From the IMG/VR virus record IMGVR_UViG_3300031555_002663, positions 1 through 64,000 of that record: a stretch of 64,000 nucleotides of DNA. One strand, 5' to 3'. Position numbers and translations under genes: made by a program. The stretch's first letter is position 1, and the number at the start of each line of letters is the position of its first letter. Source of the DNA: a virus (taxonomy: Duplodnaviria > Caudoviricetes). Under the pieces are notes generated by a model. The model had not been told where the DNA came from and did not search any database. It saw only the letters and a program-made list of their open reading frames with translations. Positions 32,450 to 61,052 of this stretch are shown in pieces.

Positions 32450-33616
32450 ATGGCTGAACAACAATACTACTGTAAAAAATGTAATAGAACCATGAGTGCT
32501 GATTAGTTCTATGGATCCTCCAACTTGGAGAAATATCCCACAGGCAAATTAGACACTTGTAAAAAATGCATTTCAATGCATGTTGATAACTGGAAGCCAG
32601 AAACTTATGTATGGATTTTGCAAGAATGCGATGTGCCATATGTTCCAGATGAATGGAATAAGTTATTAGAGTCTTACGCGCGCGACCCTTCCAAGGTAAC
32701 AGGTATGACTATTCTTGGCAGATATTTATCAAAAATGAAACTTAAACAATACAAAGAATACAGATGGAAAGATACTGAATTTTTGCAGGAGCTTGCCGAT
32801 AATAAATTAGAACAAGCAATGAAGAGACAAGGTTACAGCGCTGCTGAAATTACTTTGGCTCAAGAGCAAAAACGAATTATTATTCCAGAAGAGGGATTTA
32901 AAGAACCTGTTTATGAAGAACCTGTTGTTGAAGATTACTTTGCACAACAAGCAGGTGGCGATGACATTGAAATTGATTTAACAGATGAAGATAGAACTTA
33001 TTTAAGATTAAAATGGGGTAAAGCTTACAAGCCAGAAGAATGGGTTAAACTTGAACAGCTTTATGAAGAAATGATGAGTTCTTATGACGTGCAAGGTGCC
33101 GGACATATTGATACATTGAAGCTTGTTTGTAAAACATCTTTGAAGGCTAATCAGTTGATTGATATGGGTGATATCGAAGGATTCCAAAAGATGTCAAAAG
33201 TTTACGACAGTCTTATGAAGTCTGGTAAGTTTACTGCCGCTCAGAATAAAGCAGAGTCTGGCGAGTTCGTTGATGCGATCGGACAGCTGGTTGAAATCTG
33301 CGAAAAAGAAGGATTCATTCCAAGATACTATATTGATAAACCAAATGATAAAGTTGATGAAACTCTTGCAGATATGAAGAGCTATACAAAGACTTTGGTT
33401 TATGAAGAATTGAATCTTGGTAATCTTATTGAGCAATCTATTAAGACTATGATGAGTGAAGAGAATAAAGACGAAGATGAAGATATTGAAGAGGAATTGA
33501 GCTTGGAGGAAATTGATTCTTTGAAAGATGAAGACTTTGAAGAGCATCTTGATTTCCTTGAAGAAGAAGCTGAATTGGATGAAGAAATTCTAAAAAGAAT
33601 GATGGGTGAAGATTAA
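32450..33616 (+). CDS. probable terminase small subunit (388 aa with TAG read through at 32504)
   Basis: GGAGG RBS plus ATG 32450. Readthrough restores CKKC...CKKC zinc ribbon. Directly upstream of terL; function inferred from position. Confidence 0.55.
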
Positions 33617-35361
33617 TGGCTCTGCAAGATTTGTTAGACCTTAGTCAAAACCGTAAAAAAATTGGTTTATCCGAAGAGCGTATTCGAGCTATTATTCCTG
33701 CCGCTAGAGATTATATTGCTTTCTGGCGTGAATATCCCGACCTTTTTGTTGACTTTATGAAAGGCCCAGATAACAACTTTAATTTATTCTTTTACCAAAG
33801 AGTTTTTATGCGTGCCGCTATGCGTCACAAATATGTTTATGCAGTTTTCCCTCGTGCATATTCAAAATCATTCCTTGCGGTTATGATTTTAATGATTAGA
33901 TGTATTCTTTATCCTCGCTGCAAATTGTTTGTTACCTCAGGCGGTAAGGAACAAGCTGCAGGAATTATGAAAGAAAAAGTTAAAGAAATTTGCACTCTTA
34001 TCCCCGCCTTTGAGCGAGAGATTGACTGGGGTCGAGGCAAATCTCTTGAAGGTAAGGACTATTGTAAATATGTATTTAAGAATGGTTCTTATTTCGATAA
34101 TATTGCCGCCCGCGAATCTTCGCGTGGTAAACGTAGACATGGCGGTCTTATCGAGGAATGTGTTGGTGTTGATGGCACCATTCTTTCCGAAGTTATTTTA
34201 CCTACTATGAACATTTCTCGTATGTGCATGGATGGAACTACTCAACCTGATGAAACTTTAAATAAATCTCAAATTTATGTTACAACTGCAGGTTGGAAAA
34301 ATACTTTCCCATATGAAAAGCTGATTCAATTACTTATTTGGCAAATTGTCCAGCCAGGTAAGGCAATGATTATGGGTGGTACTTATAGAATTCCTATCTT
34401 AATGAAGTTGCTTGATAAGAACTTTATTAAAGACTTAAAGATGGACGGAACTTTCAATGAGAGCTCATTCGACCGTGAATATGAGTCTAAATGGTCTGGA
34501 ACTGTTGAAGATGCATTCTTTAGTTCTGAAGTATTTGATAGAAATAGAATTCTTAATCAGCCTGAATATGAAGCTTCCGGTCGTTCAAGCAAAGCAGCAT
34601 ATTATATTCTTGCAGCCGACGTTGGACGTAAAGGTTGTGACACTGTTGTTTGTGTATTTAAGGTAACTCCTCAACCACAAGGTTCTGCAATTAAGAGTTT
34701 AGTAAATATTTACACTCTTACTGATGAACACTTTGAGGAACAGGCAATTAAATTAAAATCTTTATATTATAAATATAATGCCAGAAGAATTGTAATTGAC
34801 GCAAATGGTCTTGGTGTTGGCTTGGTTGACTTTATGGTTAAACCTCAAGTTAATCCAGATACCCTTGAAGTTATGCCAGACTTTGGTGTCTATGGTGGCA
34901 CACAAGATGATGCAGCTCAAGAGTATAAAAAGTATAAAACCAATTCTACAGAACAAGATGCACTTTATTTAATTAAAGCTAGCGCTCCGATTAATACCGA
35001 GGCTCATACGATCGCTCGTTCCAATTTGTCTTCTGGAAAAGTAAAATTCTTAATTGATGAACGTGTTGCTAAACAGAAGTTATTAAATACTAAAGTCGGT
35101 CAAAATATGAAACCTGAAGAAAGGGCAAATTATTTAAAACCATTCACCTTAACTTCTATATTAAAAGAGGAAATGATGAACCTTCGAGAAGAAAACGAAG
35201 GTGTAAATATTATCCTAAAGCAAGCAAATAGAGGTATTCGAAAAGATAAATTTTCAGCTTTTGAATACGGTTTATATTATATAAAACAAGAAGAAGAGTC
35301 TAAAAAGAAGCGTAAAAAATTTAATGCTAAAGAATGGGCATTTTATTCATCTGGTAGATAA
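33616..35361 (+). CDS. terL: terminase large subunit
   Basis: Walker A-like FPRAYSKS, Walker B LIEE, nuclease motifs AADVGR and IDANGLG. Confidence 0.9.
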   Translation: MALQDLLDLSQNRKKIGLSEERIRAIIPAARDYIAFWREYPDLFVDFMKGPDNNFNLFFYQRVFMRAAMRHKYVYAVFPRAYSKSFLAVMILMIRCILYPRCKLFVTSGGKEQAAGIMKEKVKEICTLIPAFEREIDWGRGKSLEGKDYCKYVFKNGSYFDNIAARESSRGKRRHGGLIEECVGVDGTILSEVILPTMNISRMCMDGTTQPDETLNKSQIYVTTAGWKNTFPYEKLIQLLIWQIVQPGKAMIMGGTYRIPILMKLLDKNFIKDLKMDGTFNESSFDREYESKWSGTVEDAFFSSEVFDRNRILNQPEYEASGRSSKAAYYILAADVGRKGCDTVVCVFKVTPQPQGSAIKSLVNIYTLTDEHFEEQAIKLKSLYYKYNARRIVIDANGLGVGLVDFMVKPQVNPDTLEVMPDFGVYGGTQDDAAQEYKKYKTNSTEQDALYLIKASAPINTEAHTIARSNLSSGKVKFLIDERVAKQKLLNTKVGQNMKPEERANYLKPFTLTSILKEEMMNLREENEGVNIILKQANRGIRKDKFSAFEYGLYYIKQEEESKKKRKKFNAKEWAFYSSGR

Positions 35362-35375
35362 GGAGGTTTGGTTGA

Positions 35376-35732
35376 ATGAGAGCTTCAAGAGGCGAAATTA
35401 AAATTGAAGAGATTTTAAAAGAAGCGGAATTGAATTTCAAAATGGAATATATTTTTCCTGACTTAAGAAGTCCAAATGGCCGACCTTTAAGATTCGATTT
35501 TGTTATTTTTGATGACGATGGTAAAATTGATTTTATTATCGAGTATCAAGGAAAACAACATTATGAACCTAGCCAGAAGTTTGGTGGAAAGCGTGGCTTT
35601 TACCAACAGCAATATAATGACAATCAGAAGCGTAGATTTTGTGCGCTTCACGATTTCAAATTAATTGAAATCCCATACACCGATGAAAACTTAATTTCTT
35701 ATGATTATATAATGAAACTTGCTGGATATTAA
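35376..35732 (+). CDS. PD-(D/E)XK (Vsr/DUF559-like) endonuclease
   Basis: RFDFVIF...IIEYQGKQHY...K...C...FKLIEIPY. Confidence 0.7.
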   Translation: MRASRGEIKIEEILKEAELNFKMEYIFPDLRSPNGRPLRFDFVIFDDDGKIDFIIEYQGKQHYEPSQKFGGKRGFYQQQYNDNQKRRFCALHDFKLIEIPYTDENLISYDYIMKLAGY

Positions 35733-35746
35733 AAGGAGGTGGGATT

Positions 35747-37399
35747 TTGGATACTAAAATGACTCGCTCTGAAGAGGTTCATAGCAAAGGCTTCGACTTA
35801 TTTGGTTCTACATATAGCCTTCAAGATGTTGAGGATCCACTTGCTTATCGAAAGATTAAGGTCGGTCCAAAAAGTCTTGATGATGCAATTTTAAATCTTG
35901 GTAGCTATAGTGCAGATTTGCCGAAATACAATGGTATTAGTAAACGAATGATTTTGCAGGCTTTAGCTGTAAATGATTTAAAGGAACTTCGTAGAATTTC
36001 AAATTTGTTTTACAATGTAAGTGGTATGTATCAACGCGTATGTGATTATTTTGCATATCTTTATAGATACGATTGGTATGTTGTTCCAGAAGTATACGAT
36101 GATGGAACAAAAGAAGAAAAGATTTTGAAAGATTTTTCAAAGATTTTAAACTATTTAGATAATTCTTATTTGAAGAAAATGTGCGGAGATATTGCCCTCG
36201 AAGTTATTAAGAATGGTTGCTATTATGGTTATATTGTTGACAGTCCAGATGGATTGGTTTTGCAGCAATTGCCAATTGATTTCTGCCGTTCAAGATATTA
36301 TGTTGGGACAAATCCCGCAATCGAGTTTAACATGAGATTCTTCGACACTATTCCAAATGTGGCTTATAGAATGAAGGTTCTTAAATTATTCCCAGAAGAG
36401 TTTGCAAAAGGTTATATGCTGTATAAGCAAGGTAAGCTTGTTGATACAGAAGATACCAGCAGACCTTTTGGAGCATGTATGACAAACTCTGGTTGGTATT
36501 TGTTAGATCCAAATAATACCGTTAAATTTAATTTCAAAAATAGCGATGTTCCAATTTTTGTAAATTCAATTCCAGCTATGTTGGATTTGGATGCAGCCCA
36601 AGATTTAGATAGACGCAAACAAATGCAGAAACTTTTGAAAATTATTGTTCAGAAGTTACCTATGGATAAAAATGGTGATTTGATTTTTGACGTTGATGAA
36701 GCTAGAGATATCCATAATAATGCAGTTGAAATGTTAAAGCGTGCTATTGGTGTTGACGTTTTAACTACTTTTACTGATGTTGATTCTATTGACTTGTCTG
36801 ATAAAAATACTACTGCAAGTCAAGACGATTTGGAAAAGGTAGAAAGAACGGTTTATAACAATTTAGGTATTTCTAAAAATATTTTTAATACTGATGGTAA
36901 TTTATCTCTTGAAAAGTCCATTTTGAATGATGAATCTACTGTAAGAAATCTTTTATTGCAGTTTAATATGTTTATGGATAGAGTTATCAAGAAAAAGAAT
37001 ACTAATATTAAAAAGTATAATTTCAAGATTTATTTCTTGGAAACCACACAGTATAATTATCAAGCATTATCCAAGCTTTATAAAGAGCAAACTCAGCTTG
37101 GCTATTCTAAAATGTTACCACAGATTGCTCTTGGACATTCACAAAGTTTCATTCTTAATACTGCTCATTTTGAAAATGAAGTATTGCATTTAAGTGAAAT
37201 TATGATTCCTCCATTAATGAGTTCTACTTTAAGTAGTGAAGATATTTTGGGTAAAAAAGATTCAAGTGCAAGTTCTAATTCTCAAAATAATTCAGGAACG
37301 AAGAAAAACTCTACGGAATCAAAGACGGTCGGGCGTCCTGAAAAGGCCGATGATCAGAAAAGTGAAAAAACAATTTAGAATAAAGAATCAATGAGCTGA
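35747..37399 (+). CDS. portal protein (550 aa with TAG read through at 37376)
   Basis: Size and position after terL; C-terminal GRPEK motif; readthrough ends at TGA overlapping the next RBS. Confidence 0.75.
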
Positions 37400-37409
37400 G
37401 GAGGATATT

Positions 37410-38999
37410 ATGAAACATACAAGCATTAAATTAGATACGCCTTGTGAGTTTATTAATGTAACTCCTGTCAACCCTTTAATTTCTAAGTGTCAGATTAAGG
37501 TTTGTTATGTTGGTGAAGAACCTAATCGCAACAGAAGTATTATTACGAAAGAAGTGGCTACCCAAATGGCGAATAGCTTGCCAGGTAGCCCAATTGTTGG
37601 TTTTTATAACGAAGCTAAAGAAGATTTCGAAGAGCACAATCGTGTAATTGATATCTCTAATGGCGAGTTTAAAATTAAAGACACTACCAGACCTTATGGT
37701 TTCGTTGATATGAATGCAAAGGTTTGGTTCCAGAAATTTTTAGACGATGGCGTAAATGAACATGAGTATCTAATGACAGAAGGGTACATTTGGACAGGTC
37801 AATATCCAGAAAGTCAAAGAATTATTGACAAAGGAAATAACCAGTCTATGGAACTTTCTGAAAATTATTTAGATGCGACATGGACAAAAGATGATAATGG
37901 AAAACCATAGTTTTTTATTATTAATGAGGCAATAGTCTCAAAACTTTGTATTTTAGGTGAGGACTGCGAACCTTGTTTCGAAGGCTCCCAAATTGCAAAG
38001 ATTGAGTTTTCTTTCGATGATAGCTTTAAGAATCAACTTTTTGCTATGATGAATGAACTTAAAGAATATTTAAAAGAAGGAGGAGCCAAAGAAGTGTTTA
38101 CAAGATATGCAGTGGAAATCGGTGACGCTTTATGGAGTGCACTTTATAGTCACATCGAAAAGACTTATCCCGATGCACAGAACTGCTACTGCTCTGTTTA
38201 CCGCATTGAAGGAATCTTTGAGGATAACGGACAGAAGTTTGCTGTTCTTCAGAGTCGCTCTGACATGAAGTATTATCGCTTAAATTTCGCTCTTACTGAA
38301 GATACTGGTTTTGTTCCTTCCGACACCTTAATCGAAGTTACTAAGTCCTATACTCCTGCCGAAGAGCCTCAGTTTGCTCTTGACGCTGTTGAAGAGTTTG
38401 AGGCTGAGTACGCTAATAAGAAAAAGGAAGAAGAAGAGGGCAAAGATGGTGAAAACGCCAATAACAATTCTGAAGATAATTCAGAAGGTGGCGAAGAAGA
38501 AAAGTGTCCTAAGTGCGGCAAGCCTCTTGCAGAGTGCGAGTGCGACGATGAAGATAACCATGAAGACGGACCTCAGAAGACCTATAATCTTGAAGAGGTT
38601 GTTGAATATACCGAGCTAAAGGCTCAGTATGAAGAATTAGAAGCAAAGTTTAGTGCTCTCGAAACTGAGCATGAAAACCTTAAGTCTGAAGTCGAACCTT
38701 TAAAGGCTTTCAAATTAGAAGCTGAAAAGAAAGATAAGCAGGCTATGATTGATCAGTTCTATATGCTCTCTGACGAGGATAAGGCTGACGTAATTGCTAA
38801 TATTGACACTTACTCAGTGGATGACATTGAGGCAAAGCTTTCTATTATTTGTGTTCGCAACAAGGTGAGTTTCGACCTTGACGAAGATAATAAGAACAGC
38901 GGAAATCCTACCGTTTATAATTTGAATAATAACGATAGTGATGAAGCAAATGTTCCAGCATGGGTAAAATCTTTGCGTGAAACCGCAAAGTCCATGTAA
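37410..38999 (+). CDS. prohead protease/scaffold protein (529 aa with TAG read through at 37908)
   Basis: Track ORFs 37410-37910 and 38046-38999 are in one frame, joined by 45 sense codons (FFIINEAIVSKLCILGEDCEPCFEG); acidic coiled-coil C-terminus. Confidence 0.65.
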
Positions 39000-39031
39000 A
39001 ATAAAAAAACTATTAAGGAGGAAAATCTAAG

Positions 39032-39871
39032 ATGATGACAGATTTTTTAAAGAGTCGTATTACATCTCAGGCTAAGTATCCTGAAGTAGGATTTGGTCAG
39101 GTCGAGCCAAACCATTTGTCTGCTCAGTACACTGGTCAGATTTATGCTCAGTTGCCTGCCGATCCTGATATTGAGATTCTTGAACAGGGTCAGTTTGTAA
39201 AGTACGACTATGCCAATGGCCTCGTTAATTTTACTGGCGAAGGCGAATGGATGCTTGTTTATAATGAAATTAAACTTTATAGAGATTTCCAGAGAGATTG
39301 CGAATTCGCAATGTTGAAGGGTAACTATCAAGCTCGTGTTTACAGCCCACTTGATGGTACTGTAATGCAGGAGATGTATGGTCCTACTCGTTTCTTACAG
39401 GGTAAGAGAGAGGCTTATGACAATGCTACTGGCACTCTCCAGACTCTTACTGGCGAGTTGGCCTATGATGAAGTAAATAAGAAGTGGGTTCAGGCTGATG
39501 AGGATCATCCTGCTGCTGATTATTCTGTTGCTTCTACTGTTCATGATTATTATGAACTTGATGATGTAAATGCTCCTGATCTTGATGAAGTTTCTAAGAG
39601 ACTCTTCATGAAGCTCCGTGATTACAAAGAAAAGATGATGCCTGCTGGCACCACTATGGTTCCTCGTGTATTTAAGACTAACGTTGGTGACCATTATACT
39701 ACTAATATGATTAATGCAACTCCTGAAGAGCTCACTCTCGGTGCAACTTTGAAGGTTGGCGAGAAGGGTATTCTTGAACCAGGTTCTGATGAAAAGATGA
39801 CTTGGCAGGTAGTTAAGGTTTATACAATGCCCGACCATCAGCGTGGCGTTAAGATCATGCGTATCGCGTAA
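39032..39871 (+). CDS. probable head-associated (decoration) protein
   Basis: Lies between scaffold and capsid; high-expression-like codon bias. Confidence 0.5.
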   Translation: MMTDFLKSRITSQAKYPEVGFGQVEPNHLSAQYTGQIYAQLPADPDIEILEQGQFVKYDYANGLVNFTGEGEWMLVYNEIKLYRDFQRDCEFAMLKGNYQARVYSPLDGTVMQEMYGPTRFLQGKREAYDNATGTLQTLTGELAYDEVNKKWVQADEDHPAADYSVASTVHDYYELDDVNAPDLDEVSKRLFMKLRDYKEKMMPAGTTMVPRVFKTNVGDHYTTNMINATPEELTLGATLKVGEKGILEPGSDEKMTWQVVKVYTMPDHQRGVKIMRIA

Positions 39872-39888
39872 GAAAGGAGAGAAGAGTA

Positions 39889-40986: not shown

Positions 40987-41013
40987 TTAATAACCGAATA
41001 ATTAATATAATTA

Positions 41014-41049
41014 GAGGGGAGCAGGGGTATTCCCCTACTCCCCTTTTTC
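41014..41049 (+). terminator. intrinsic terminator after capsid gene
   Basis: aggggagcaggggtattcccctactccccttttt. Confidence 0.75.
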
Positions 41050-41077
41050 TTATTTTTGTGATAAAGGAGATATTAAA

Positions 41078-41665: not shown

Positions 41666-41690
41666 TCTTCAAGAAAGGAGGTTGTAAATT

Positions 41691-42266
41691 TTGGGAACTA
41701 AATTTGCAACAGTATATAACCGCTTTCTTGGAAAAATTACTGATGATATGTATCTAGAATTAACTCCAGAAGATACAATTAAGGATTTGCAAAATCTTTT
41801 AGTTGATGCAATTCCTGGATTTGAATTTCCACGAATTAATCTTTATGATTATGATATTTCGGTTGTAAAGATTGCCGAAGATGAAATCGTAGAAGAAGAT
41901 TTTGTTTTGGGTGTAGTTTGGGAAGATGATTCTGGGGAATTATCAGAAGTTCCTAACGTTCTAGTCGATCGTTCTAGTTTTAATGTTGAATTAAGCTCTG
42001 AAGAAGTTAACATCTTAGCACTGTTAATGAAACAGGCTTGGGTTCAACGTCAAGTCACTTCTATTGAGAATACAAGAATGAAATATAGTGGAGCTGATTT
42101 TAAAATGACTTCACAAGCTAATCACTTGGCTAAATTGCTTTCATTATTGACAGAGTCTCGTAGAGATTCTTTCCATATGCAAAGACTTTATAAAAGGAGA
42201 AAACTTTCCAAAGATGGTTATTCATCTAACTGGTCAGTTTTACGAGAAACAAGTGCTATTAACTAA
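41691..42266 (+). CDS. probable head-tail adaptor
   Basis: TTG start after GGAGG; position after capsid. Confidence 0.5.
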   Translation: MGTKFATVYNRFLGKITDDMYLELTPEDTIKDLQNLLVDAIPGFEFPRINLYDYDISVVKIAEDEIVEEDFVLGVVWEDDSGELSEVPNVLVDRSSFNVELSSEEVNILALLMKQAWVQRQVTSIENTRMKYSGADFKMTSQANHLAKLLSLLTESRRDSFHMQRLYKRRKLSKDGYSSNWSVLRETSAIN

Positions 42267-42567
42267 ATATGATTTTTTATTCTCAGCTAATGACATTGAT
42301 AAAAATGTTAAACGCCTAACTAATCAACTTTGGAAATTAATTCCAATGAGAGAAAATGATGAAGATTGGCGTAAACAATTGGATACAGTTACTTTAGAAG
42401 TTGTGGGTCTGAATGAAATTTTCCTTTCATACCCACAATTTTTATAGCTGTTAAGTAAACTAGAAGGATTGCAACATACTGAAGAAATTGAATTTGATTT
42501 GTATCGAAAAACTGTTTTTGAAGCTATAAATTTACTTCAGGAGATTAACCGTGTCACGAGGGTATGA
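42253..42567 (+). CDS. hypothetical protein (104 aa with TAG read through at 42445)
   Basis: GTG start overlaps the upstream stop; ...PQFL*LLSKLEGL... continues to TGA overlapping the next start. Confidence 0.65.
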
Positions 42568-43654: not shown

Positions 43655-43674
43655 GTAAAAGGAGAGTATGTTAA

Positions 43675-44262
43675 ATGAAGATTAATAAAGATCCGATGCC
43701 TAAATCTTCATTCCTATCTATGGAAAAAGATATGCATCTTATTACCAATATGATGCTAAGAAATCCTCGATTAAAAAAGTTGTTGCATCATACTACACCA
43801 AGATGTTTAGAGATGCCTGCTTTGACTGAGGATCAAACCTATGATCTTATTGGTAAAAATATTAAATTAATTCCTAAACTTTATGTCGATAATTCAGTAT
43901 TGAATTATATTATTGTTAGCTTTGATAATTTTACACCAAATGCAACAAATCCAGAGTTTAGAGATAATATTATTGAATTTGACATTATTTGTCATTTTGA
44001 CCAGTGGGGCCTAAAAGATTTCCAATTGCGTCCATATAAAATTGCAGCGGAAATTGATTCAATGTTTAATGAAAAACATTTAACTGGAATCGGTACTTTA
44101 AAATTCTTAGGTGCGAATCAAATAATTCTTACTGACGAATACGCTGGTTTATGTTTAATGTACTCTGCTATTCATGGCGAAGAAGACAAGATTGATATGC
44201 TCAATCCTCGTGATCAAGAGCAGTTTGAAAAAGACTTTAAAGAATTAATGGGCCAAAAATGA
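43675..44262 (+). CDS. probable tail completion/neck protein
   Basis: 195 aa; FDIICHFDQW...RPYKIAAEIDSMFN; upstream of tail genes. Confidence 0.5.
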   Translation: MKINKDPMPKSSFLSMEKDMHLITNMMLRNPRLKKLLHHTTPRCLEMPALTEDQTYDLIGKNIKLIPKLYVDNSVLNYIIVSFDNFTPNATNPEFRDNIIEFDIICHFDQWGLKDFQLRPYKIAAEIDSMFNEKHLTGIGTLKFLGANQIILTDEYAGLCLMYSAIHGEEDKIDMLNPRDQEQFEKDFKELMGQK

Positions 44263-44987
44263 ATGATATTCGATTGGCGCTAATGTGCGGGTCGGACATC
44301 CCTATTCCTGAGATTCAAGCGGCCGTGCATTAGCCGAAAATGAAAGAAATTGCTCTTATTGGAGAAGCAGATTTTTTTGTAGCAATACAATGCTTAAACG
44401 TAGACAAAAACCTTTTACGTCAGGACAAAACACTTTTATAGAATACAAGTAATTTTTAGATATTTATGACGATAATGTCTGAGAAGGAGACAAAAGATAA
44501 GAAATTAGCAACTCAGCAATTACTACAACTTTTATTTCCTAATCATAACATTATGTTTACCCCTCGATCAATTCTTTTACAAGGAAAAGAGAATTCTTCA
44601 ACAATTGATGAATCAAATTTCGAGTTTTTGCAAGAAATTTTAAAACAAGTCTTTTGTGTTTCTAATAAAAATAATCAGCAGGCAGGTTTTAATCCAGCAA
44701 ATGAAAAAGCTCGTGAGATTGCTGAAAAGTTAATGAGAGGTAGACAAAGAGTTGCTGAACAAAACGGTTCAGCTAATGCTAGTATATTCAGCCAATATCT
44801 TTCTATATTAACTGTTGGACTTTCATCCATGTCTCTGCAAGAATTAATGGAACTAACCATGTATTAGTTATATGATTTAGTGGAAAGATATCAGCTTTAT
44901 ATTAGTTGGGACATTGATATTCGTTCTCGTTTGGCTGGAGCCAAGCCAGATGATCGTCCCGATAATTGGATGAAAAACATTCATTAA
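44259..44987 (+). CDS. tail-region protein (242 aa with 4 TAG read through)
   Basis: ATG overlaps the upstream TGA; in-frame TAG at 44331, 44439, 44457, 44865; ends TAA just before the next RBS. Confidence 0.7.
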
Positions 44988-45009
44988 TTTTTAAGGAGGA
45001 AAATAACCT

Positions 45010-46038: not shown

Positions 46039-46060
46039 TAGAGAATAAATATATAAATTT

Positions 46061-47746: not shown

Positions 47747-47792
47747 TTAAATCCATTAAATTATCTTATTTTTTAAAGATATATAGGAGTAA

Positions 47793-47835
47793 TTGGGGAT
47801 AAGAGTAGTATTACTCTTATCCCCAATTTTTTATT
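47793..47835 (+). terminator. long stem-loop terminator
   Basis: aattggggataagagta-gtat-tactcttatccccaatt-tttt. Confidence 0.75.
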
Positions 47836-47874
47836 TTGCAAAATAAAAAATTAGGAGAGAAAGGAGCAAAATAA

Positions 47875-50800
47875 ATGGCTAAACAATTAAATGTTAATCT
47901 TTCATTTACCGCCGATACCGGAAAGGCGAGAGCTCAATTGAAAGATTTGCAAACTCAATTGACACATTTAATAAATCAGTCTTCTATTGATGGCGATGGC
48001 TTGGGTCTCAGTAAAGATATTGAAAAAGCAACAAAATCTGTCGCTGAACTTCAAACCCATTTAAATAAAGCCATGAATACTAAAACTGGTAATTTAGATT
48101 TTTCAAAATTAAATGATTCATTGAAAAAAAGTGGAAAAAGTTTAGACAAGTATGGAGAAGAATTAAGATCTTTAGGTCCAGACGGATAGAAAGCTTTTTA
48201 GGCTTTAGCTACATCAGTTGCAAATGCAGAGATTCCTATTAGACGATCAAATGCTGCATTAACAGAAATGTGGACTACTTTAAAAAATACTGCTCGTTGG
48301 CAGATTTCTTCAAGTATTTTACATGGATTTATGGGTGCCGTTTCTTCTGCTTATGGGTACGCTCAAGATTTAAATGAGTCTTTAAATAATATCCGCATTG
48401 TAACAGGAAATAGTACTGAAGAGATGGCTAAGTTTGCAAAAGAAGCAAATAAGGCTGCAAAAGCTCTCAGCACTACTACCACTAATTATACAGATGCGGC
48501 TTTAATTTACTACCAACAGGGTTTAAATGAAGAGCAAGTTAAGGAGCGTGCTGATATTACTGTAAAAATGGCTAATGTTGCTCGTGAAAGTGCTGATATC
48601 GTTTCTGACCAGTTAACTGCTGTTTGGAATAACTTCTATGAAGAAGGCGGTCAATCTTTAGAGCACTACGCTGATGCAATGACAGCTCTTGGTGCGGCTA
48701 CAGCATCTAGTACAGATGAAATCGCAGGCGGCTTAGAGAAGTTTGCATCTATCGCAGATATGATTGGTTTAAGCTTTGATAATGCAGCTGCAGCTTTAGC
48801 TACTATTACTGCAACTACTCGTCAAAGTGAAGAGGTAGTTGGTACAGCATTAAAAACTATTTTTGCTCGTATTCAAGGTTTAAATTTAGGAGAAACTCTT
48901 GATGATGGTACTACTTTAAATAAGTATTCTGAAGCTTTAGCTAAAGTAGGAATTTCCATTTATGATGCTGCTGGAGGATTAAAAGACATGGATAGCATCC
49001 TTGAAGAGATGGGTGCTAAATGGCAATCCTTAAGCAAAGACCAGCAAGTGGCTTTAGCTCAAACTGTAGCTGGTGTTCGTCAATATAACCAATTGGTTTC
49101 TTTGATGGATAATTTTGATTTTTATCAACAAAATTTATTAACAGCACAAACTTCTGAGGGAGCCCTTAATAAACAGGCTGAAATTTACGCAGAATCATGG
49201 GAAGCTGCACAAGCTCGAGTAAGAGCTGCGGCAGAGGCCATTTATGGAGAATTACTCAATGATGAAGCTTTTATTGACCTTTTAAATATCATAGAAAAAC
49301 TTTTAAACGGCATTAAAACTTTTATTGATAGTGTCGGAGGTCTTGAAGGCGTTTTAGTATCTTTAGGAGCTGTTATTACTAAAGTATTTCATAATCAGTT
49401 ATCTCAAAGCTTGACAAATGCTGCCTATAGTATGAAAATGTTAACCGCTAAAGGCAGAGAAGAAATTCAAAATGAAAGAAAATCATTTTTAGATAGAGCT
49501 GCGGGCGTTACTGAGAATAAAGAATATACTACTGGAGAAGAAAAAGCTAGATCTGAAGCTTTAAGAGATCAGCTAACATTGCAATCTGAACTTTTAGATA
49601 AAGCTGATCGAATGAGCGAAATTGAGTTAGAAACTAATAGGACTCTAATGGACCGAGCAAAACTTCTTGGTGAAAATAAAATTAAAGCGGCTGAAAATTT
49701 AGATCAACAAAAAGAAAAAGTTAGCGATAAAACTTTTGATGTAAAAACATCTATTACTCAAAATGCATTAGATAATGGATTAAATCTTAAACAAGTTACA
49801 GCTGAATTTGATGGATTTCAAAAGAAATTAAAGAATGGTATTAACATAAAGACAAATCTTCCTGCTGAATTAAGAAAAATGCAATCTGAAGGAAAAAAAG
49901 CAGACAAGCAATTGGAATATATCCAAAAGCAAGCTCGAAAAATGGCAGATGCAGATTTAACAAAATTTGTTAATGGATTAAAAGCTAGTGATTTAGAGGG
50001 AGAAGAATTAGAACAAACACTGGTTCAAATTGTTGCTCACGTCAATAATATCATGGACGACTCTCATGCAGGTATTGTTGACCTGGGAGTAGATGTTAAA
50101 GATGTTGATGATTTAGTTGATTCCATGTATGATAGAGCAGAGGCTCAAAGAGATGTAAATAAAGCAACAGAAGAGGCAGCAGCAGCTCAAAAGACCGCTT
50201 CAGATTCTATTAAAGAATCTAATGGTGCTCAAAAGGGTTGGGCTGATCATATGGTTAACATTGCCAATACAACTATGGCAACTATCTCCATCATCCAAAC
50301 TCTTGGAGGAGTTTGGGATACAGTATCTAATCCAGATGCATCAGCATGGGAAAAAGTCGGTTCTGTAATGATGGGTCTTGCAACTATTGTTCCAATGTTA
50401 ACAATGGCTCTCAGTAAAGAATCTATTCAGTCAATGGCGGCAGCGGCCGCAGCTATTGCTCATGCATTGGGTCTATCTACTGAAGCAACCGCGGCAGGAA
50501 TTGCAGCCGGAGCTACAGCAACCTTCGGAACTGTATTGTATACGGTATTGTGGCCTATTGGACTTGTAATAGCGGCTATTGGACTTTTAGTTGGAATTGT
50601 CATGGGAGTTGTAAAAGCTTTCCAATATTTCCAATCTCAAACTCCTGAAGGAAAATTAAAAACTTTACAAGAGGAAGCTCAAAAAAGTGCAGATGCTTTT
50701 GCTAGAGTTACAGAGTCTGTTGAAGAAACAAAAGCTGCTCTTGAAAGTTTAGATTCTGCATATGAAACTATAGAAAATTTAACTCGTGGTACTGACGAGT

Positions 50801-53800
50801 GGTATAATGCCATTACAAATGTAAATGCAGAAGTAATGAAGCTTCTGGAAAAATATCCTGATTTAATTTCTGATCAGGTATATGCTACTGAAGATGGCAT
50901 GTTAAAAATTACTGAAGCTGGCATCGATGCAATTGAGAAAGAAAATCGTATGCGACTTCAAACAGCTCAAAATGTAAATACTGCAAATCAAATTGCTGTC
51001 AAAAAGCAAGAAATCGAAGTTTCTCAAAATGATTTTGAGGGAATGAATAAAATTGCTCGCGGCAGATATGACGATGAAGTTGCAGATGCAATTCAACAGT
51101 ATTATGAAACTGAAGGTGTTGGAGAGCAATTATTTACTAAAGAAGGAGCAAATGCATTACTAAAAGGCCTTCGTGATGAAGCTTCTTTCCTTATTAAAGA
51201 TAAAGTTGATTCTGAGAAATTTTATCAGATGCTTTTGGATAACCAAGAGCAAATTAGAGAGAATGCTAATATTCACAAGCAAATTAACATCTTAGAAGAT
51301 TCTCTTATTCAATCTCGTGCAACTGCTGTTGGATCTACTAGAAGTGCAGATGAAGTTAGAGATTTAGTTGGAGAAGATACAATTACCAGAATTAAGAATA
51401 AAGCTAAGGAAGATGTAAAACTTGATTTTGGTAACTGGAATAAACATATTAATTATGATAAAGATGATGAAGAATGGGGTATGATTGAAGACTTCATGAA
51501 TCTTCAAGGCGATGATGTTGAATATGTTGCTCAACGTCATGGAAAAATGGTTCTTGAAATTGATGGAGAAGAAATTGAATACTCTAAAGATGAAGTTTAT
51601 AATGCATTAACTGAATTATATAGTGGACCAGAAATTGAATCAAAACTTGAAGAAGGTTTTGAAAAGAGTATTGGTGCTGCTTTAGGTCGTTCAGTTGCTA
51701 ATTTAGACGTTACAGAACTTGCCGAATTAGATAATTTCCAAAGAGGACTTGCTGATGCTTTAACAGGCACCGACTTTGAAGGAAATTCTGATGAAGTATT
51801 TAAATCTGTTGCTAACACCTGGAACGTTGACACAGAGCAAGGATTTGAAAATTTCCAAACTGATACTCAATATATTGATTTAACATCAGAAGCATTTTTA
51901 CGCCAAGCTTTAGCTTTAAATGAAGGTGCTATTAGCGCTGGTCAATTTAAAGATGCAGTTCAAGAGCTAAATGCTCAAGGCGAGATTTTAGCAATGAATG
52001 ATTTCTTTACCAATGCGGCGAAGGGATTAGGCTTAGATGATGAAGCTGCTGCTGAAATGCAAGAATATGCTGAACATTTAAGAAGTATTGCAAAAGAATC
52101 TGAGATTTTAGATGAAAGATTAGCAGAAGACGCAAAGAGTGCGGCAGATTTAGCTGTTGAAATAACTCGAATGAATAAGGGTATCGATGACTTAGCAGAC
52201 GGTTTTGAAGAGTGGAGCGATATTCTTAAAAAGAGTAGTAAAGAAAGTGCTGAATATGCTAGTGCTATGTCTAATATCAAGAAATCTTTAAGTAATGTTC
52301 TTGATGTAGAATCCGATTTAATTTCTAGCAGCTTTGTTGAAGACCATTTGGAAGAAATTGAAAAGGCTTCTCAAGGAGACGCTGAAGCTATTGATTTCTT
52401 ACGTTCTCAAATGGATGAAGAGATTATCCAAAAAGTTTCTTTAACTAAGCCAGAAGAATTACAGCAAGAAATTCTTGAATTAGATAATAAATTAAAATCA
52501 GAGTTAGAGCGAATTAATGCTGAGATTCCAGATATTGAAGTTGGTGCAATTTTACAAGATCAGGCATTTATTGATGCTGCAAACAACTTAGTAACTCAAT
52601 CTGGTATGACTGCCGATGAAGCAAATGCATATTTTGCTGGTATTGGTTATGAACCAGTATATAATGTTACTGACGTTGAAGCTCCTGGTGAAATTGATAC
52701 TAACACTCAAACAACTAGCTATTTAGATCATTTCTCTTTATTTAATGGCTATTCTGATTTAGATTTAGGACCTCTTGGTTCTTATAAAATTCCTAAAATT
52801 AATCCTAATATTACTTGGCATAGTGAAACTAAACCATTAACACCAACTCCAATTGAAACAACCATGCCTTTGGTTAGCTTCAGTGGTGATGGTAAACCTC
52901 CTCAGATTCAAGGATTAAGAAAAAAAGCCACTGGCTCAATGAACAATTATTCCAAGTCAAATTCAGGAGGAAAAGCTCCTGGATCTTCTGGAGGTAAAAA
53001 AGGTAGCGGTAGTAAAGGCAGCGAACCTAAAAAAGTAGATCAAACTAAAAAAACAGATATTGTTGATAGATATAAGCAAATAGAAGATCAAATTGATGAT
53101 GTATCAGATGCATTAGATGATGCTTCTAAAGCTGCAGACCGACTTTATGGACTTGATAAAATTAAGAAAATGCGTGAAGTCAATTCTTTGTTACAAGAAG
53201 AAGTTGGCTTATTGGAGAAGAAAAAAGAAGAAGCTGAAAATTATTTAGCTACAGACTTAGCAGATCTTCAAAGCGCCGCGTCTGAATTTGGAGTCCAATT
53301 TACTACTGATGAAAATGGTAATTTAACTAATTATCAAACCATTATGGAAGGTCTCTATAATCAGCTCCACGCTTTAGAAACTGCTAATGGTGGCATGGCC
53401 GATGAGGCTCAAGAAGAAGAAATTAAAAATCTTAAAGAAAAAATTGATAAAGTTAAAGAAGCTATTTCTCAATATGATGAAACTCGTGAATTAATTGAAG
53501 ATATAGATAATGAAATTCAAGATAAGATTTATGAATGGCAAGATAATAATTATGAAATTTTACAATATGAGCTTGAATTAAAAATAGAAATAAATGATGA
53601 AGATTTAAGAAAGTTAGATTATTATTTAAATAAATATTCTGATAATTTCTATAAAATGGCAGAATCTGCGGAGTTGTTAAACAAACAAATCCCAGAATTA
53701 AAAGAAGCTTTAAGTATTTATGATGAGCATAAAGCAAAATTAGATGAAGCTTATGCCAATGGAGAAATTTCACAAGAAGCTTATATAGAAGGATTGAAAG

Positions 53801-55911
53801 AAGTCCGTGATGGTTATTATGACAGCCTTGAAGCTCTCAATGAATTAGATAAAAAGATGCTTCATTACTATGAAGATACTTTATCTGAGGCAAGAAGTGA
53901 ACTTGAAGACTATACTGATCATATGGAACATCTTACTGAGGTATTTGATCATTATATTAACTTAATGGATATTCTTGGAAAATCTAAAAACTATGAAGCA
54001 ATTGGAGATTTCTTAGGAGGAAAAGCGGATACTATTAGAGATCGATTAGAGGTTTCTAAAGAGTATTACAATATGCTTCTTGAGCAAAAATCTGACATTG
54101 AAGCTAAATTAAATGCTGCTATTGCAGAAGGTGACGATGCAGCCGCTGAACTCTATAAAGAAGAGTGGGATGCTATTGCTGATGAAGTTGATGCCGCACA
54201 AGAAGAGGTTTTAAGTCTTACTGAAGAGTGGGCCGAAGCAATGAAAGCAGTTATTGAAAATAATATGGCGGAAATTGCTGAAGTTCTTGAAAAATCTTTG
54301 ACTGGTGGAACTACTTTTGATACTCTCATGGATGAATTTGATAAATTAAATACTCGTCAAGAAGAATATTTAACTAAAACAAATCAAATCTACGAAACCA
54401 ACAAGTTGATGCGCACTGCAAGTAAAGCATTAGATGAAACAGATAATAAAGTTGCAAAACAAAAACTTAAAAACTTTATTGATGAAACAAAGAGTTTGCA
54501 AGAGAATACTAAATTAAGTCAATATGAGTTAGAAATTCAGCAGGCTAAATATGATTTGTTATTGGCTGAAATTGCTCTTGAAGAAGCTCAAAATGCAAAA
54601 TCTACTGTTCGCTTGTCCCGAGATAGTGAAGGTAATTTTGGATATGTTTATACTGCAGATCAAGATAAAGTGGATGATGCTCAACAGGCTTATGAAGATG
54701 CAGATAATAGATTATATAATCTTTCTCTTGAAGGTCAGCAAGAATTTACTGAAAAGTATTTACAAGCTACTCAAGAAATGTATAATCAATTAACCGAGTT
54801 ACAGCAAGCTTGGTTAGATGGTGAAATTGCTTCTGAAGAAGAGTATGAAAGAAGAAAAGAAGAAATTCTTAATCATTATCTTGGTCCAGAAGGCGTTTTA
54901 ACTACTTATCAAAATCTTTATAACATTGCAGTTCGTACTGATGCCGATGCTACCGCAGATAACTGGCAAAAAGATTATGCTGCAATGACTCAAAATACTG
55001 AAGATTGGAAAGACGCAGTAAATGAGTATTTAGTGGCTGTTGAAGAACAAACTGCACAGTGGGCAGAAGTTTCTGAACAGGCTAATGAAGATGTTGAGGG
55101 AGCTCTTGAAGATAGTGCAACAGCAACTAAAGAATTGACTGATGAAAGCGCTGAATTAAGAGATACAATTGTTGATGAAGTTATTCCAGCAATTGAAGAA
55201 GAATTGGATTGGGTTCAAGCGCAAACTGAAGCTTATGCTGAACAGCGTGCAGAATTACTGGCTTTAATTGAAACCTATGAAGATTATATTGATGCTATTA
55301 ATCAGCAAATTGAAGAAGAGGCCGGTCTTGGATATGATAAAAACACAGACTATTCAGCTGTTATGGCTGGATACTTAGCCGCTGGAGGAACTGTTGGTAG
55401 TGATACTTGGAATGAACTTGAAAGACAAAGAGAAGCAAAAATTGAAGGAGAAGATTTAAAGAAAGATTATTATGGTTCTCGTGTTGGAGAAGACGATTAT
55501 AATCCTCAAGCAAGTAATAAATGGTATGAAGATAAAGATGCAGTTAATGAAATCCTTAAAAAATTAGGTATTCAAACTTTCTCTTCTGGAGGATACACAG
55601 GAGACTGGGGTCCAGAAGGAAAACTTGCTATTTTGCATGAAAAAGAACTTGTTCTTAATGCAGGAGATACTGCTAATTTATTATCTACTATTTCTTTCAT
55701 TCGTGATTTGGTATCTTTGATTGATAGTCAAGCAACATCTGCAAGTCTATATAATCTTATGAGTACTCCTGGAGTAACAACCTCTCAAGAAGTTCTTGAA
55801 CAAAAAGTTGAAATTTATGCAGAATTCCCGAATGCAACAGACCATAATGAAATTGAAGAAGCCTTTAATAATCTTGTTAATAGAGCGTCTCAATATGCTA
55901 ATAGAAAATAA
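47875..55911 (+). CDS. tape measure protein (2678 aa with TAG read through at 48187 and 48199)
   Basis: Long helical Ala/Glu-rich ORF with central hydrophobic segments and C-terminal GGYTG...LAILHEKELVL; track ORFs 47875 and 48268 are in one frame. Confidence 0.85.
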
Positions 55912-55915
55912 TATG

Positions 55916-55948
55916 AAGGGTGAGATAGAAATATCTCACCCTTTATTT
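55916..55948 (+). terminator. intrinsic terminator
   Basis: aagggtgagata-gaaa-tatctcaccctt-tatttt. Confidence 0.8.
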
Positions 55949-56036
55949 TCGTTTATTGGCCAAATTACATTATGAAATTATATTGAAAACTTAAAATATA
56001 ATAGGAAAATTATTAGAGAAAAAGGAGGAATTGATA

Positions 56037-59000
56037 ATGGCAGATATTGCTGAGCAAATTTGTTTAGCTGTCGATTAGATCGTTTTAGAACGATTAAAAA
56101 ATATTAAATACGACACTACAATTGTCGCTACAATTGTAGATAATAAACACGCCGCAGATTATAGATATACTTGTTCTAATGGTTCTGCGCAATTTGTTGC
56201 TTTCTCTAAAGATACAACTTATAAAATTAACGATTCTGTGCAAGTAACAATTCCTAATGGAGATTATGATCAGCAAAAAATTATTATTGGTAAATATGTA
56301 GCTGATGATGAAACTCCTTATATTTTTACTTAGCCCTTTGATACAATCATTGATGTTAGTGCAAATTTAATTGATGAAGAAGTTTCAGCCAAAGGACTTA
56401 TTGCTAATGATGAATATGATACTGGACGTCATATGGATGAAGTTCTTGTATGGAGTAAAGTTTTTTCAGAAGGCTTTTATGATTTTGAAAGACTTGGTAT
56501 TCAAGGTCAATTTAGAAGTAGAATAAAATCTTTAAAACCAGTTTCAGGAAACTATGGTTATAGATTAGAAGTTCTTTCAAGTAGAGATGAAATTGTTTCT
56601 AATGGCTCTGTCCCAGAAATTGCTTTTATTTATAGTGCAATTTTAAATAAAGAAGAATATGGTCTTGGACCTTTAAATACTATTCCCGAAAGTTGGTTTG
56701 GAAAAGTTGCTGATGAATTGGGATTAACTATTACAGAAACTGAAGAAACTTTCAAAAAAGCTTATATTCAAAGTTTTAATGCGGAATATGAAATTGATAA
56801 GTTTTCAAATAAATGTATGAGCATGGCAAAGGCTTTGCTTTATGCTAATGCACAATTAACAGAATTATATTTAAGTAGTGCAGATATGTATGGTAACCCA
56901 TATAATTTTCAAAGCTTTTTTGAGCAAGAAAAAGTTTATGATATTTCTTCCTTAAATGCAATTTTTGGAATGAGTTTATATTTTTATGAAGATTCAGGTT
57001 CTTTCTTTGATGAAGATGGAGAACCAATTCCTTATAAATATCAAACCGGCAGAAAAAGAGATCCTAATTTGCATACAAAGGATCCTTATATTTGTTTGGG
57101 TTATGATTTATCTAATTTTGATTCTGAGCAGGCTCTATTATTTACTACTGATGGTTCTACATACAAGACTCGTGATGAAGTAGCGGTAGCAGATAATAGA
57201 AAACATATTCGTTTAAGATGGCTTCATTTGTTTGAAAATGGTAATATTTCAGTAATTTCAGAAGCCTCTCAATTAGAAGGATATGAAGTTAGATGGTATC
57301 GATATAAAATGGGCGCTCCTAGCGCCGATGAATACAGTGGAGTCTATTGGACTGCGATAGAAAAAACTGACGATTGGTTTAATTATACTTTAAATCCTGC
57401 ACCAAATACTTCAATAGAACAAATTAAAGCTATTGTTTTATTTGAAGGAAAAGTAATTCGTAGCAATATTTTAACTTTTTCAAATGAAGTTGAAGTCGCT
57501 AATACTGCAACTGCTGAAGTTATTTCTGGTTTATCTATTTGGTGTAAAGATGGCAGCTATGGCAATTATTGTCGATATGGTCAAAATAATGAACTTATGG
57601 ATAGTATTCAGCCAAATGAAAACATTCAAACCATTACTGCTAATACTGTTTTTACATTTGAAGCAAGATTTGCAGATAAAACTTTATTGGCTGATGAATA
57701 TAATGTAGACCAGGTTGCTTTACCTTTACAAGAAGCAAAAGAGATTACTTGGGAAATTCCTTTGCAAAATTCTATGATTATTGTGCAAGGGTTTAATTAT
57801 AACTATCCTATTTATGATAGCGAGTGGGTTAATGTAGATAAAACTATTCCCAATTATGAAATGATTTATGCTAATGATGATTTAAATGATGGCGCTCGTT
57901 ATAAACAAGATGGTTTTTATAGTGACGCTATTATTAAAGTAAGAGGAAATAGTATTTTTATTACTCGCAAGGGAGCGGAAGATGGTTCTATTAATGCCTT
58001 GCAGGATTATCGAATAAATAAAACATTTAATGCATCCGCATTAAATAATACTGTAAAATGTACTGTTCTTAAAAATGGTTTAATTTATAGTGCCACTAAA
58101 GAATTGACTTTTGGCATTATGGGAACAAATGGTACAGATGCTACTATTGTTATTGATTTTGACAATAATAAGACGGCTTTAACCGCAAATGACCCAGAAG
58201 ACCTTTTAAAAGTGACAGCACACCTATATGACTCTTCTCATAGAGAAGTTGATTTTCATGATGAAACCAATAAAAATATTCGTTGCTATTGGTCTTGGAA
58301 ACATTATTCTTTAAATGATGGAGAAGAAGTAAAACTGACTCAGCGCCTTAATGCTGAATATTTAGAAGTTGATGCAACTATCCCAAAAAATGTATGTTAT
58401 TTATCTCATACAACTCCGCTGTCTATTGCAGCAAATTCAAAATATTTTTTGGTATTAAAAGTAACTGTTACTGGTTTTGGTGATTATAATTTAATTGCCT
58501 ATAAAGCAGTACCTTTGCGCGCTAATCGTCAATATAGAAATATTATTGGCCCAACTGAAATTATTTATAACACTACTGGACATCCCACTTACTATAAAGA
58601 TAAATTCTCTTTATGGTGGTGTGCAGATGAAAATAAAATTACAGAATTTGATACTGTAACAGATGAAACAGCTATTTCCAATATTTCTTCTAATTGGAAA
58701 ATTCATAATCCATATTTAGAAGAATTGAATTTAATTGGTACAATTAGCAACAATATTTTAAAACCTGCTAATGTGTATATTAAGAACGCAGAGCCTTATG
58801 GAGCTTATTGTTTCTTAAATACTGCGGATGGAGGAACCTCTGAACCTGTTTGGATTCAGCCTTTTGTAATTATGCAAAATGAATATCCTTCTGCGACAAT
58901 TAATCAGTGGAATGGTAAAGAAGTTCAAATTGAATATGATAAAGGATATATTCTTTCTCCTGCAATTGCAGCAGGTAGAAAAGATAAAGATAATCGTTTT

Positions 59001-61052
59001 TATGGTGTTATGATTGGCGATTGGAGTAACACTCCAACCGCAGATGATTTAACTAAACAAACTGGTGTTTATGGTTTCCATGCGGGCGCACTAAGCTTTG
59101 CTTTTAAAGAAGATGGTACTGCTTTTATTGGTAAGAGCGGCCGTGGACGAATTGAACTTGATGGTAATAATGGTACTTTAAAATCTTCTGCTTGGACAGA
59201 AGAAAATGAGACTGGCATGTTTTTAGATTTGGATGATGGTATTCTTAAACTCCAAAGAGAAGGCGGATTTGACCAAATTCGTATTGACGATCCAGGAAGT
59301 TATAGTACAGGAACTTATTATGTTCAAAAAATTACCTATACTAAAGTTGATTTAAATACACCTTATGATTCTTCTCAAGTATATTTTAAAAAGGGTCTTG
59401 TCCCAGTTCTTGCTATTAATGAAGCTACTTTTAATAGAAAGAAAGCGGCAGGCATTCTTTATTATAGAGCGCCAGATGTTTATAATCAATGTAAAGATAC
59501 TGACGTATACAGTGATACTAATGAGTATTATCAACATACTTATACTGCCGCGATCGGTTTAACTGCAGAAACTTTTGTACCATCTAACTATTATATTAAA
59601 GATGGAGATACTTATACAAAATGTTCTGCAACAGCAACGTTTGATGAAAATACAACTTATTATACTCAAAATGAAGGTTTAAGTAGAGTTTATCCAACTA
59701 AAGAGCAATATGAAGCAAATCCAGGGCAATATTTCATTTATATGCAAGGTAATATTGTTAAAGTAACTTCTAACTTAGCTTATAATGCCGAGCATGAATA
59801 TTATCAAGAAGGATATGTGGAACAAAATTATGGCGTTTCCCCTCCTCCTTCAACTTGGAACACATCAGAAGATGAAAGTCTTGCAGATGGGGAAAGTTAT
59901 TATATTGCAACAGGTATGGAATATGTAATTTCAAATGATCCATACGACCCGGGCGAAATTTATTATGAAGATAATCGTTCTGAGTCTGATAGATATATTA
60001 CATTATCTGCAAAAACAACCCAATACCCTCTTGCTATTGGTACAAATGTAAATCCATCTAGCCGAAAGTTTAGAGTTGATTGGGATGGTACTTGCTATAT
60101 TCAAGATGGCGTTTTTAGTGGAACTATTGACGCAGAAAGTGGAACCCTTGGAGACTTAACTTTATATGGAACTCTTTCTGTTGAGAATGGTGGACATATT
60201 AATATTGATAGAGAAGGATATATGTATGTTGGACCTTCAGGATATATCGAATTAGATAATAATGCATATATTACCATGAATAAAGGTGGATATATTGAAT
60301 TAGATGCTCGTGGAGGATATATTTCCTCTGTAAAATTAAAACTATCTGATGTTGAAAATTCTGGATTCTGGTTAGATATTGATGGATTCCATGTTGGTGG
60401 TAGACAAAGATATTTTTATGCATCTCCGAGCGCCATTGGATTTTATAGTAATATGCTTGGATATGATGGTAGCAGAATTACTTATTTCCCTGGTACTTTA
60501 AGATTGTCTGGACACGCCTTAGATATGTATGCTTCTGCTATGGAAGAAGGATGGGGTGCAAGTGATGACGATCTTATTAAAGCCGCAGAAGATGGTCTTT
60601 CAAAAATTACTTCTACTAATTTTTATGATGAAGGATCAATTAGAATTGGTTGGGAGCCAAATAGAACATTTTTCCATCCTTATTTAAGACTTGGTTTTGG
60701 TACTTATGCTTCAGGCTCCACTTATCATATGGCTGATGCCGCGACAATTAAAAAATATACTGGCGGCATTTGGATTGGTAACTATGGATATGGAAACTAT
60801 ATAGGAGATGGCGGTAATCATTTACAAACCCCATTTGTAGACCCTAGAATTTATTGTGGTATGTTTTATTATACTGGTTCAACTTATTTGGACGGAAAAA
60901 CCGAACAGGTTGCTGAATATGGTCCGGGTGGAAGTTCTCCAACTGTACCTACAGTATTTAGATGTGAAGTTATTCCTATATATAATGCTAAGGGTAATAT
61001 CACAGGATATAAAACTGTTTATGAACCAGCGAGATATGCAAGATTTGCATAA
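56037..61052 (+). CDS. large tail/baseplate (host-recognition) protein (1671 aa with TAG read through at 56076 and 56331)
   Basis: GGAGG RBS plus ATG 56037, in frame with track ORF 56433; beta-rich, Tyr/Gly-rich C-terminus. Confidence 0.7.

Follow-up and report, generated by a model that had tools for sequence, protein, structure and literature searches.

In-frame amber codons predicted to encode glutamine in late structural genes of a large, siphovirus-like phage

The DNA considered here (the window) comprises the first 64,000 bases of a 73,984-bp viral contig, IMG/VR record IMGVR_UViG_3300031555_002663 (Duplodnaviria; Caudoviricetes), and an earlier note had pointed to in-frame amber (TAG) triplets in its morphogenesis genes, with the proposal that TAG is reassigned from stop to sense, likely as glutamine (Gln). 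The analysis shows that TAG is a sense codon on this contig, that comparison with related phages predicts its meaning to be Gln, and that its use is limited to the late genes. We consider highly probable the account as a whole, in which TAG never serves as a terminator and is read as Gln in the late structural operon, the early genes are code-neutral, and a suppressor tRNA would decode the amber codons.

Results

Amber triplets interrupt the late genes and end none

All 12 TAG positions given in the earlier note were found in frame, in seven plus-strand open reading frames (ORFs) terminated by TAA or TGA, and four further in-frame TAGs lie past the window end at contig positions 67652, 68117, 69515, and 73256. 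The 25 late genes, comprising 13,940 codons, contain 16 in-frame TAGs and no in-frame TAA or TGA, in agreement with the claim that no comparable TAA or TGA interruptions occur. Off-frame stop triplets in these genes number 490 for TAG, 1222 for TAA, and 1183 for TGA, giving TAG a share of 17%, and the probability that all 16 interruptions would be TAG if stops were random is about 5e-13. As terminators, the late genes use TAA (19) or TGA (5) in the 24 complete cases, one gene running off the contig, and the 41 early genes backed by a ribosome-binding site (RBS) use TAA (35) or TGA (6). TAG thus ends none of the 65 RBS-backed genes that reach a stop (24 late and 41 early); the absence of TAG from gene ends that had been reported stands, with 65 ends checked rather than roughly 80. 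The ORFs that terminate in TAG under the standard code (translation table 11, or code 11) are RBS-less and lie mostly on the antisense strand.

With TAG read through (code 15), the late operon consists of 25 tightly packed genes that cover 98.1% of the region, nearly all of them behind an AGGAGG-type RBS, whereas code 11 yields 39 pieces that are 95.9% coding, many of which lack an RBS. The RBS-backed starts ATG 32450, ATG 47875, and TTG 56031 replace the RBS-less code-11 starts 32525, 48268, and 56433, so that both the tight packing and the restored starts described previously are borne out. Recoding of TGA or TAA in the window was tried as a separate candidate and rejected; neither triplet occurs in the late frames, and no coherent long genes emerge under alternative codes in the 15–28 kb region.

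Read-through restores full-length virion proteins

PHROG profiles span the TAGs of the portal, the protease-scaffold protein, and the tape measure, as well as those of the proteins matching phrog_3314, phrog_29637, and phrog_4051, which confirms the claim that essential proteins regain their full length. About 60 related phage loci likewise align over the amber positions. The first TAG-bearing gene (32450–33616, plus strand) lies just upstream of a terminase-like gene and encodes a 388-residue zinc-ribbon protein that matches phrog_3314 over residues 1–331. Its TAG at 32504 is codon 19, and CKKC motifs at residues 8–11 and 37–40 flank this codon, indicating that the zinc ribbon is indeed recovered by read-through; the RBS-backed ATG 32450 is usable only when TAG is read through. 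The 550-residue portal protein (35747–37399, plus strand) matches phrog_2739 over residues 72–548 and carries TAG 37376 as codon 544, in a column occupied in the relatives by Ala (14), Gln (13), and TAG (3), and by Gln or Ala in those without in-frame TAG. The prohead protease-scaffold fusion (37410–38999, plus strand; 529 residues; phrog_3313 over residues 8–512) has TAG 37908 at codon 167, within the protease domain, and Bacillus-phage prohead proteases align over its residues 1–240, spanning that codon. A 117-residue protein (42214–42567, plus strand; phrog_29637) with TAG 42445 at codon 78 fills a 284-nt gap left by code 11, and the relatives have TAG (15), Gln (7), or Ile (5) in the corresponding column. 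The densest TAG use is found in the gene for a 242-residue virion-module protein, g44259 (44259–44987, plus strand), which matches phrog_4051 over residues 1–241 and contains TAGs at 44331, 44439, 44457, and 44865 (codons 25, 61, 67, and 203). The tail tape measure protein of 2678 residues (47875–55911, plus strand) has an RBS at 47875 and TAGs at 48187 and 48199 (codons 105 and 109), both crossed by tape-measure PHROG profiles that align from residue 1 to about residue 678. The 1673-residue tail-region protein (56031–61052, plus strand), with AGGAGG upstream of TTG 56031 and TAGs at 56076 and 56331 (codons 16 and 101), had no match among the PHROG families, and the support for its two TAGs comes from ORF and RBS structure because a single homologue aligned.

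The TAGs might instead be real stops, arising from amber mutations in a defective phage, from truly split genes, or from sequencing or assembly errors. Most of the code-11 pieces remain ORFs, and the gain in coding density from code 15 in the late region is only 2.2 points, both of which weigh against recoding. Real stops would, however, have to be reconciled with interruptions that are TAG in 16 of 16 cases, with gene ends that are never TAG, and with code-11 restarts that lack ribosome-binding sites. They would also truncate the tape measure at 104 residues and cut both the protease domain and the zinc ribbon. Nine window TAGs can be aligned with the sister lineage, which has TAG at seven of them (p = 0.013), and the pattern recurs in dozens of independent assemblies, so that an explanation by real stops is extremely unlikely, and TAG as a sense codon is the reading retained.

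Gln is the predicted residue at TAG

Sixty-six related loci were gathered from IMG/VR, and the codon beneath each window TAG was read. At codons 25, 67, and 203 of g44259, the residue is Gln in 9 of 9, 10 of 10, and 10 of 10 relatives without in-frame TAG, respectively. The BLOSUM62 scores summed over the window TAG sites are 15.7 for Gln, 6.3 for Glu, and zero or below for all other residues. The relatives contain 1,193 distinct in-frame TAGs, which stand opposite a Gln of the window in 41.5% of cases compared with a background of 3.8% (11-fold), with Glu and Lys near background. The 101 TAG sites of the sister lineage correspond in the window to CAA at 27, CAG at 21, and TAG at 7. The three invariant Gln columns in relatives without TAG and the top BLOSUM62 score of Gln uphold the identity proposed in the earlier note, and the alignments support Gln as the likely meaning of the window TAGs, with Glu and Tyr unsupported here.

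The family to which this phage belongs mixes at least three codes. In a portal tree, the L001 group comes out as the sister of the window within a clade of TAG-recoding phages, the TGA-to-Trp relatives form a clade of their own, and a few members without in-frame stops are interspersed. In the well-supported TGA clade (L025, L026, L028, L029, L035, L054–L060, L062–L064, and L066), it is in-frame TGA, not TAG, that faces Trp (166 cases), corresponding to code 4, and six loci (L032, L036, L039, and L050–L052) have no in-frame stops. In L033 (IMGVR_UViG_3300037249_000228), L120 (IMGVR_UViG_3300037400_003528, 133 kb), and L143, the TAGs mostly occupy positions at which the window and about 20 relatives have an unvarying Glu. 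Under the TAGs of L120, 24 columns are Glu and one is Gln, and the BLOSUM sums at the TAGs of L033 are 103.6 for Glu versus 47.0 for Gln. The genome of L120 also has a tRNA(CUA) (L148:6092-6168, minus strand) whose acceptor stem matches that of its own tRNA-Glu(UUC). These observations suggest that TAG may mean Glu in the L033/L120/L143 subclade. In L136 (IMGVR_UViG_3300035498_000629, 6.2 kb), nine TAGs of the terminase region fall in Tyr columns (five, at 80% or more), Phe columns (two), or mixed columns (one Phe/Tyr and one Tyr/Ala/His), with 50–90 homologue contexts per column, making L136 a candidate TAG-to-Tyr lineage of the same family. Full-text literature searches found no description of TAG as Glu or Tyr in phages.

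Two points weigh against the assignment of Gln in the window. No Gln-specific signal is present at 11 of the 16 sites (seven in variable columns and four with a single aligned homologue), so the call rests mainly on five sites together with the family-wide statistics, and TAG seems to mean Glu or Tyr elsewhere in the family, so kinship alone does not establish what the codon stands for. A reading of the window TAGs as Glu, or as Tyr, would be in line with the invariant Glu columns of L033, L120, and L143 and the Tyr/Phe columns of L136, with the tRNA-Glu-like acceptor stem in L120, and with the mixed Gln/Glu columns at some window sites, such as protease codon 167 and tape-measure codon 105. 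In contrast, conserved Glu or Tyr columns hold none of the window TAGs and invariant Gln columns hold three, the summed scores favor Gln over Glu, the portal tree nests the window among TAG-to-Gln lineages, and the TAGs of the sister lineage stand opposite window CAA or CAG at 48 of 101 sites. Glu or Tyr is accordingly judged very unlikely in the window, and Gln is the residue adopted below.

The decoder of TAG

No tRNA gene or Rfam family was detected anywhere on the 73,984-bp contig, which leaves nothing there able to decode TAG. The RF-1/RF-2 domain was absent from the contig and from four relatives searched, and a Glu/Gln-tRNA synthetase gene from the contig and from the near-complete relatives searched, which extends to the whole contig the remark of the earlier note that neither a suppressor tRNA nor a release factor can be seen in the window. 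Several of these results weigh against the recoding account. The suppressor tRNA, release factor, and Glx-tRNA synthetase are all unseen on the roughly 38%-complete contig; the relative G002 (contig of L014, 176,574 bp, 92% complete) carries 39 in-frame TAGs over its aligned late genes and no detectable tRNA gene; and the relative G005 (91% complete) has tRNAs, none of them CUA. Because G002 and G005 recode TAG without tRNA(CUA), a phage-borne suppressor is not guaranteed.

The lack of a suppressor tRNA is itself to be expected and carries little weight, because only about 38% of the genome is on the contig and synteny puts the tRNA block of the relatives past its left end. Gene order is colinear with that of the 126-kb relative G001, with window base 1 corresponding to about 17 kb in G001, and the tRNA block of G001 lies at 0.2–8.5 kb, which means that the homologous block would fall to the left of window base 1. 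Of nine TAG-recoded relatives examined, six (G003, G004, G006, G007, G008, and phAss-1) carry a tRNA(CUA), which is absent from G001, where the block is cut by the contig end, G005, and G002. The tRNA-bearing relatives have 8–39 tRNAs, and the suppressors of several have acceptor or D arms in common with the tRNA-Gln(UUG) of the same phage. The tRNA(CUA) genes of G007 (L109:13356-13448) and G008 (L110:11888-11975) measure 88–93 nt and contain a long variable-region insertion, which could represent an extended variable arm or an intron-like element; the TAGs of these phages still face Gln.

TAG could also mean Gln with no phage suppressor involved, the decoder being supplied by the host or a co-infecting element, or replaced by near-cognate read-through. 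The available 74 kb without a tRNA, the precedents of G002 and G005, and the report of TAG suppressors in just ~40% of TAG-recoded genomes, in a preprint that also describes clades mixing codes 4, 11, and 15 (Borges et al., 10.1101/2021.08.26.457843), are compatible with this arrangement, as is a load of 16 codons, which would be the easiest to sustain by weak suppression. However, six of nine relatives have a tRNA(CUA), in a tRNA block placed by synteny just off this contig. Near-cognate read-through of stops is too inefficient to get past four TAGs in one gene or to supply structural proteins in the hundreds of copies required. A phage lacking its own suppressor is thus considered unlikely.

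TAG load and its confinement to late genes

TAG accounts for 16 of 544 Gln-type codons in the late genes versus 0 of 142 in the early genes (Fisher p = 0.023). It occurs in 10 of the 25 late genes (40%), or 10 of all 66 genes called on the contig, and amounts to 2.9% of Gln-type codons, about one TAG per 870 late codons. In the close relatives, the corresponding share over the aligned late genes is 16–36%. So light a TAG load is the one distinctive trait of this phage, and the density gain from code 15 falls below the 5–10% thresholds used in screening, which are an operational and not a biological criterion. The 5' bias of TAGs within genes is weak (Kolmogorov-Smirnov p = 0.04–0.06) and was not relied on. 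A count of sites with TAG in both the sister and two or more outgroups was considered as a sign that the window lineage had lost ancestral TAGs and was dropped as proof, because TAG at 16–36% of Gln sites makes independent coincidence yield a similar number. Estimated from counts, TAG sites common to several lineages are no commoner than independent use predicts. The preference among the standard Gln codons also flips by module, with CAG 103 and CAA 39 in the early genes and CAA 381 and CAG 147 in the late genes, in parallel with the GC difference between the modules.

Genome layout and neighboring genes

The completeness of the contig was estimated by CheckV at about 38%, and no terminal repeat was found on the 73,984-bp record; the phage is large and siphovirus-like, with a full genome of probably 130–190 kb. 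A Gram-positive, Bacillota-type host is inferred because of the strong AGGAGG ribosome-binding sites and the structural homologues in phages of Bacillus, Lactococcus, and Enterococcus. Attempts to recover more of the genome with an exact 42-mer from the left end of the contig gave no match in the viral contig collection, and an exact-protein look-up of a 434-residue early gene was likewise without a match.

The contig is organized as two divergent modules, an early one mostly on the minus strand (1–31,231) and a late plus-strand operon from 31,340 to the contig end. The late operon runs from a sigma-factor-like gene through the zinc-ribbon, terminase-like, portal, and protease-scaffold fusion genes to virion proteins, the tape measure, and several tail proteins, each longer than 1,000 residues. 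Its first gene (31340–32404, plus strand; no TAG) matches phrog_5767, annotated as a sigma factor, with an E value of 1.3e-54, and the C-terminal 40–65 residues of the product also weakly match HNH and zinc-finger-type families. The terminase-large-subunit-like protein of 581 residues (33616–35361, plus strand), which matches phrog_15503, phrog_24618, and weak TerL families, has no TAG in the window, although relatives have TAG at several of its Gln columns. An 1139-residue tail-region gene starts at 61490 on the plus strand and passes the window end at 64000, and the operon continues to the contig end.

The 41 RBS-backed early genes (887–31231, mostly minus strand) end in TAA or TGA and have no in-frame TAG. 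The small genes of the module encode, among others, a phosphoesterase, a FolD-like enzyme, and superinfection-exclusion-like proteins. The FolD-like tetrahydrofolate dehydrogenase/cyclohydrolase gene (29816–30655, minus strand; phrog_7320, E 7e-71) is an auxiliary metabolic gene among these early genes. The block from 15000 to 28400 is GC-richer (0.43–0.45), with a strongly negative AT skew and a low stop density in all six frames, and has many small minus-strand genes, several of which may be paralogues. A shared 'AAGGAATTGATACT-ATG' context precedes the genes at 21574, 23536, 24060, and 25835 in this block. Gene calls are uncertain in the promoter-rich 15–28 kb block; a PHROG search with ten ambiguous ORFs of 18.9–28.1 kb returned no usable match, and a tblastx comparison of the early region with G001 as a check of the early frames was uninformative, with repeated non-coding promoter-like elements dominating the matches.

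Discussion

The distribution of TAG is compatible with a simple order of events during infection. The early genes, being free of TAG and ending in TAA or TGA, would be readable by unmodified host machinery and are the same under codes 11 and 15. The portal, protease-scaffold, tape measure, and tail proteins would reach full length only once an amber-reading Gln-tRNA is present. The likely decoder would be a phage-encoded tRNA(CUA) of the tRNA-Gln type, carried in a tRNA block just past the left end of the contig and charged by host enzymes. Such a suppressor would compete with host release factor 1 (RF1), which could turn TAG into a gate for late expression, and the TAG-free early genes fit the published idea of a translational gate on late genes.

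TAG-to-Gln recoding of late genes has already been published, and the window phage adds a case that is unusually sparing in TAG. Such recoding has been described for the structural genes of large phages whose Firmicutes and Bacteroidota hosts use the standard code (10.1101/2021.08.26.457843). Like the window phage, the code-15 phages of gut hosts in that study, in large Firmicutes-infecting clades such as Agate and Sapphire, have TAG in late structural genes, code-neutral early genes, low GC, and no TAG as terminator, and like the relatives of the window phage they have suppressor tRNA(CUA) and one clade with codes 15, 4, and 11. The genome size, host type, and code mix of Agate and Sapphire are compatible with the window phage. 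In contrast to the phages of that study, the window phage has a far lower TAG load and a density gain of about 2 points, below the 5–10% detection thresholds applied there. The 136-kb siphovirus-like gut phage phAss-1 (OQ749652; proposed Phassvirus; 'Caudoviricetes code 15 clade' at NCBI) also reads TAG as Gln, including in its tape measure and portal, and has three tRNA-Sup(CTA) genes, 36 tRNAs, and 41 recoded ORFs (28% of all ORFs) with no dedicated synthetase (PMC10607447). Its protease-scaffold protein is homologous to that of the window but only about 37% identical. Megablast of 23.6 kb found no match in the phage collection, neither to phAss-1 nor to any near-identical annotated phage. 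Judged by these comparisons, the window phage does not belong to the same genus as phAss-1.

The comparison with Lak and crAss-like phages drawn in the earlier note is fair with respect to mechanism, and by sequence comparison the true kin are large Firmicutes-type siphovirus-like phages, distantly including phAss-1. In both crAss-like and Lak phages, the same codon is assigned to the same amino acid and a late-gene bias is reported, and metaproteomics is reported to have confirmed code 15 for crAss-like phages (PMC9523058), but both groups have unrelated virion lineages and infect Bacteroidota. Some Lak phages have RF2, whereas no release-factor gene was found on the window contig or in the four relatives searched.

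A tentative view, possible but with somewhat less than even chances, is that this phage represents a transitional state with minimal recoding, in a family where amber means Gln in most lineages, Glu in some, and apparently Tyr in one, with TGA meaning Trp in another clade. Its 16 TAGs, mostly at sites common to the sister lineage, would then be either the remnant of a retreat from code 15 or a minimal 'amber gate' that times late translation.

For annotation, table 11 truncates or splits the portal, protease-scaffold, tape measure, zinc-ribbon, and several tail proteins, and table 15 is the right choice for this genome. Because several meanings of stop codons coexist in the family, the residue at TAG has to be tested for each genome and not taken as Gln by default. 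A phage genome may depend on amber suppression with so few TAGs that density screens pass it as standard code, and if such minimally recoded phages exist, light recoding would escape coding-density screens and the spread of phage recoding would be underestimated.

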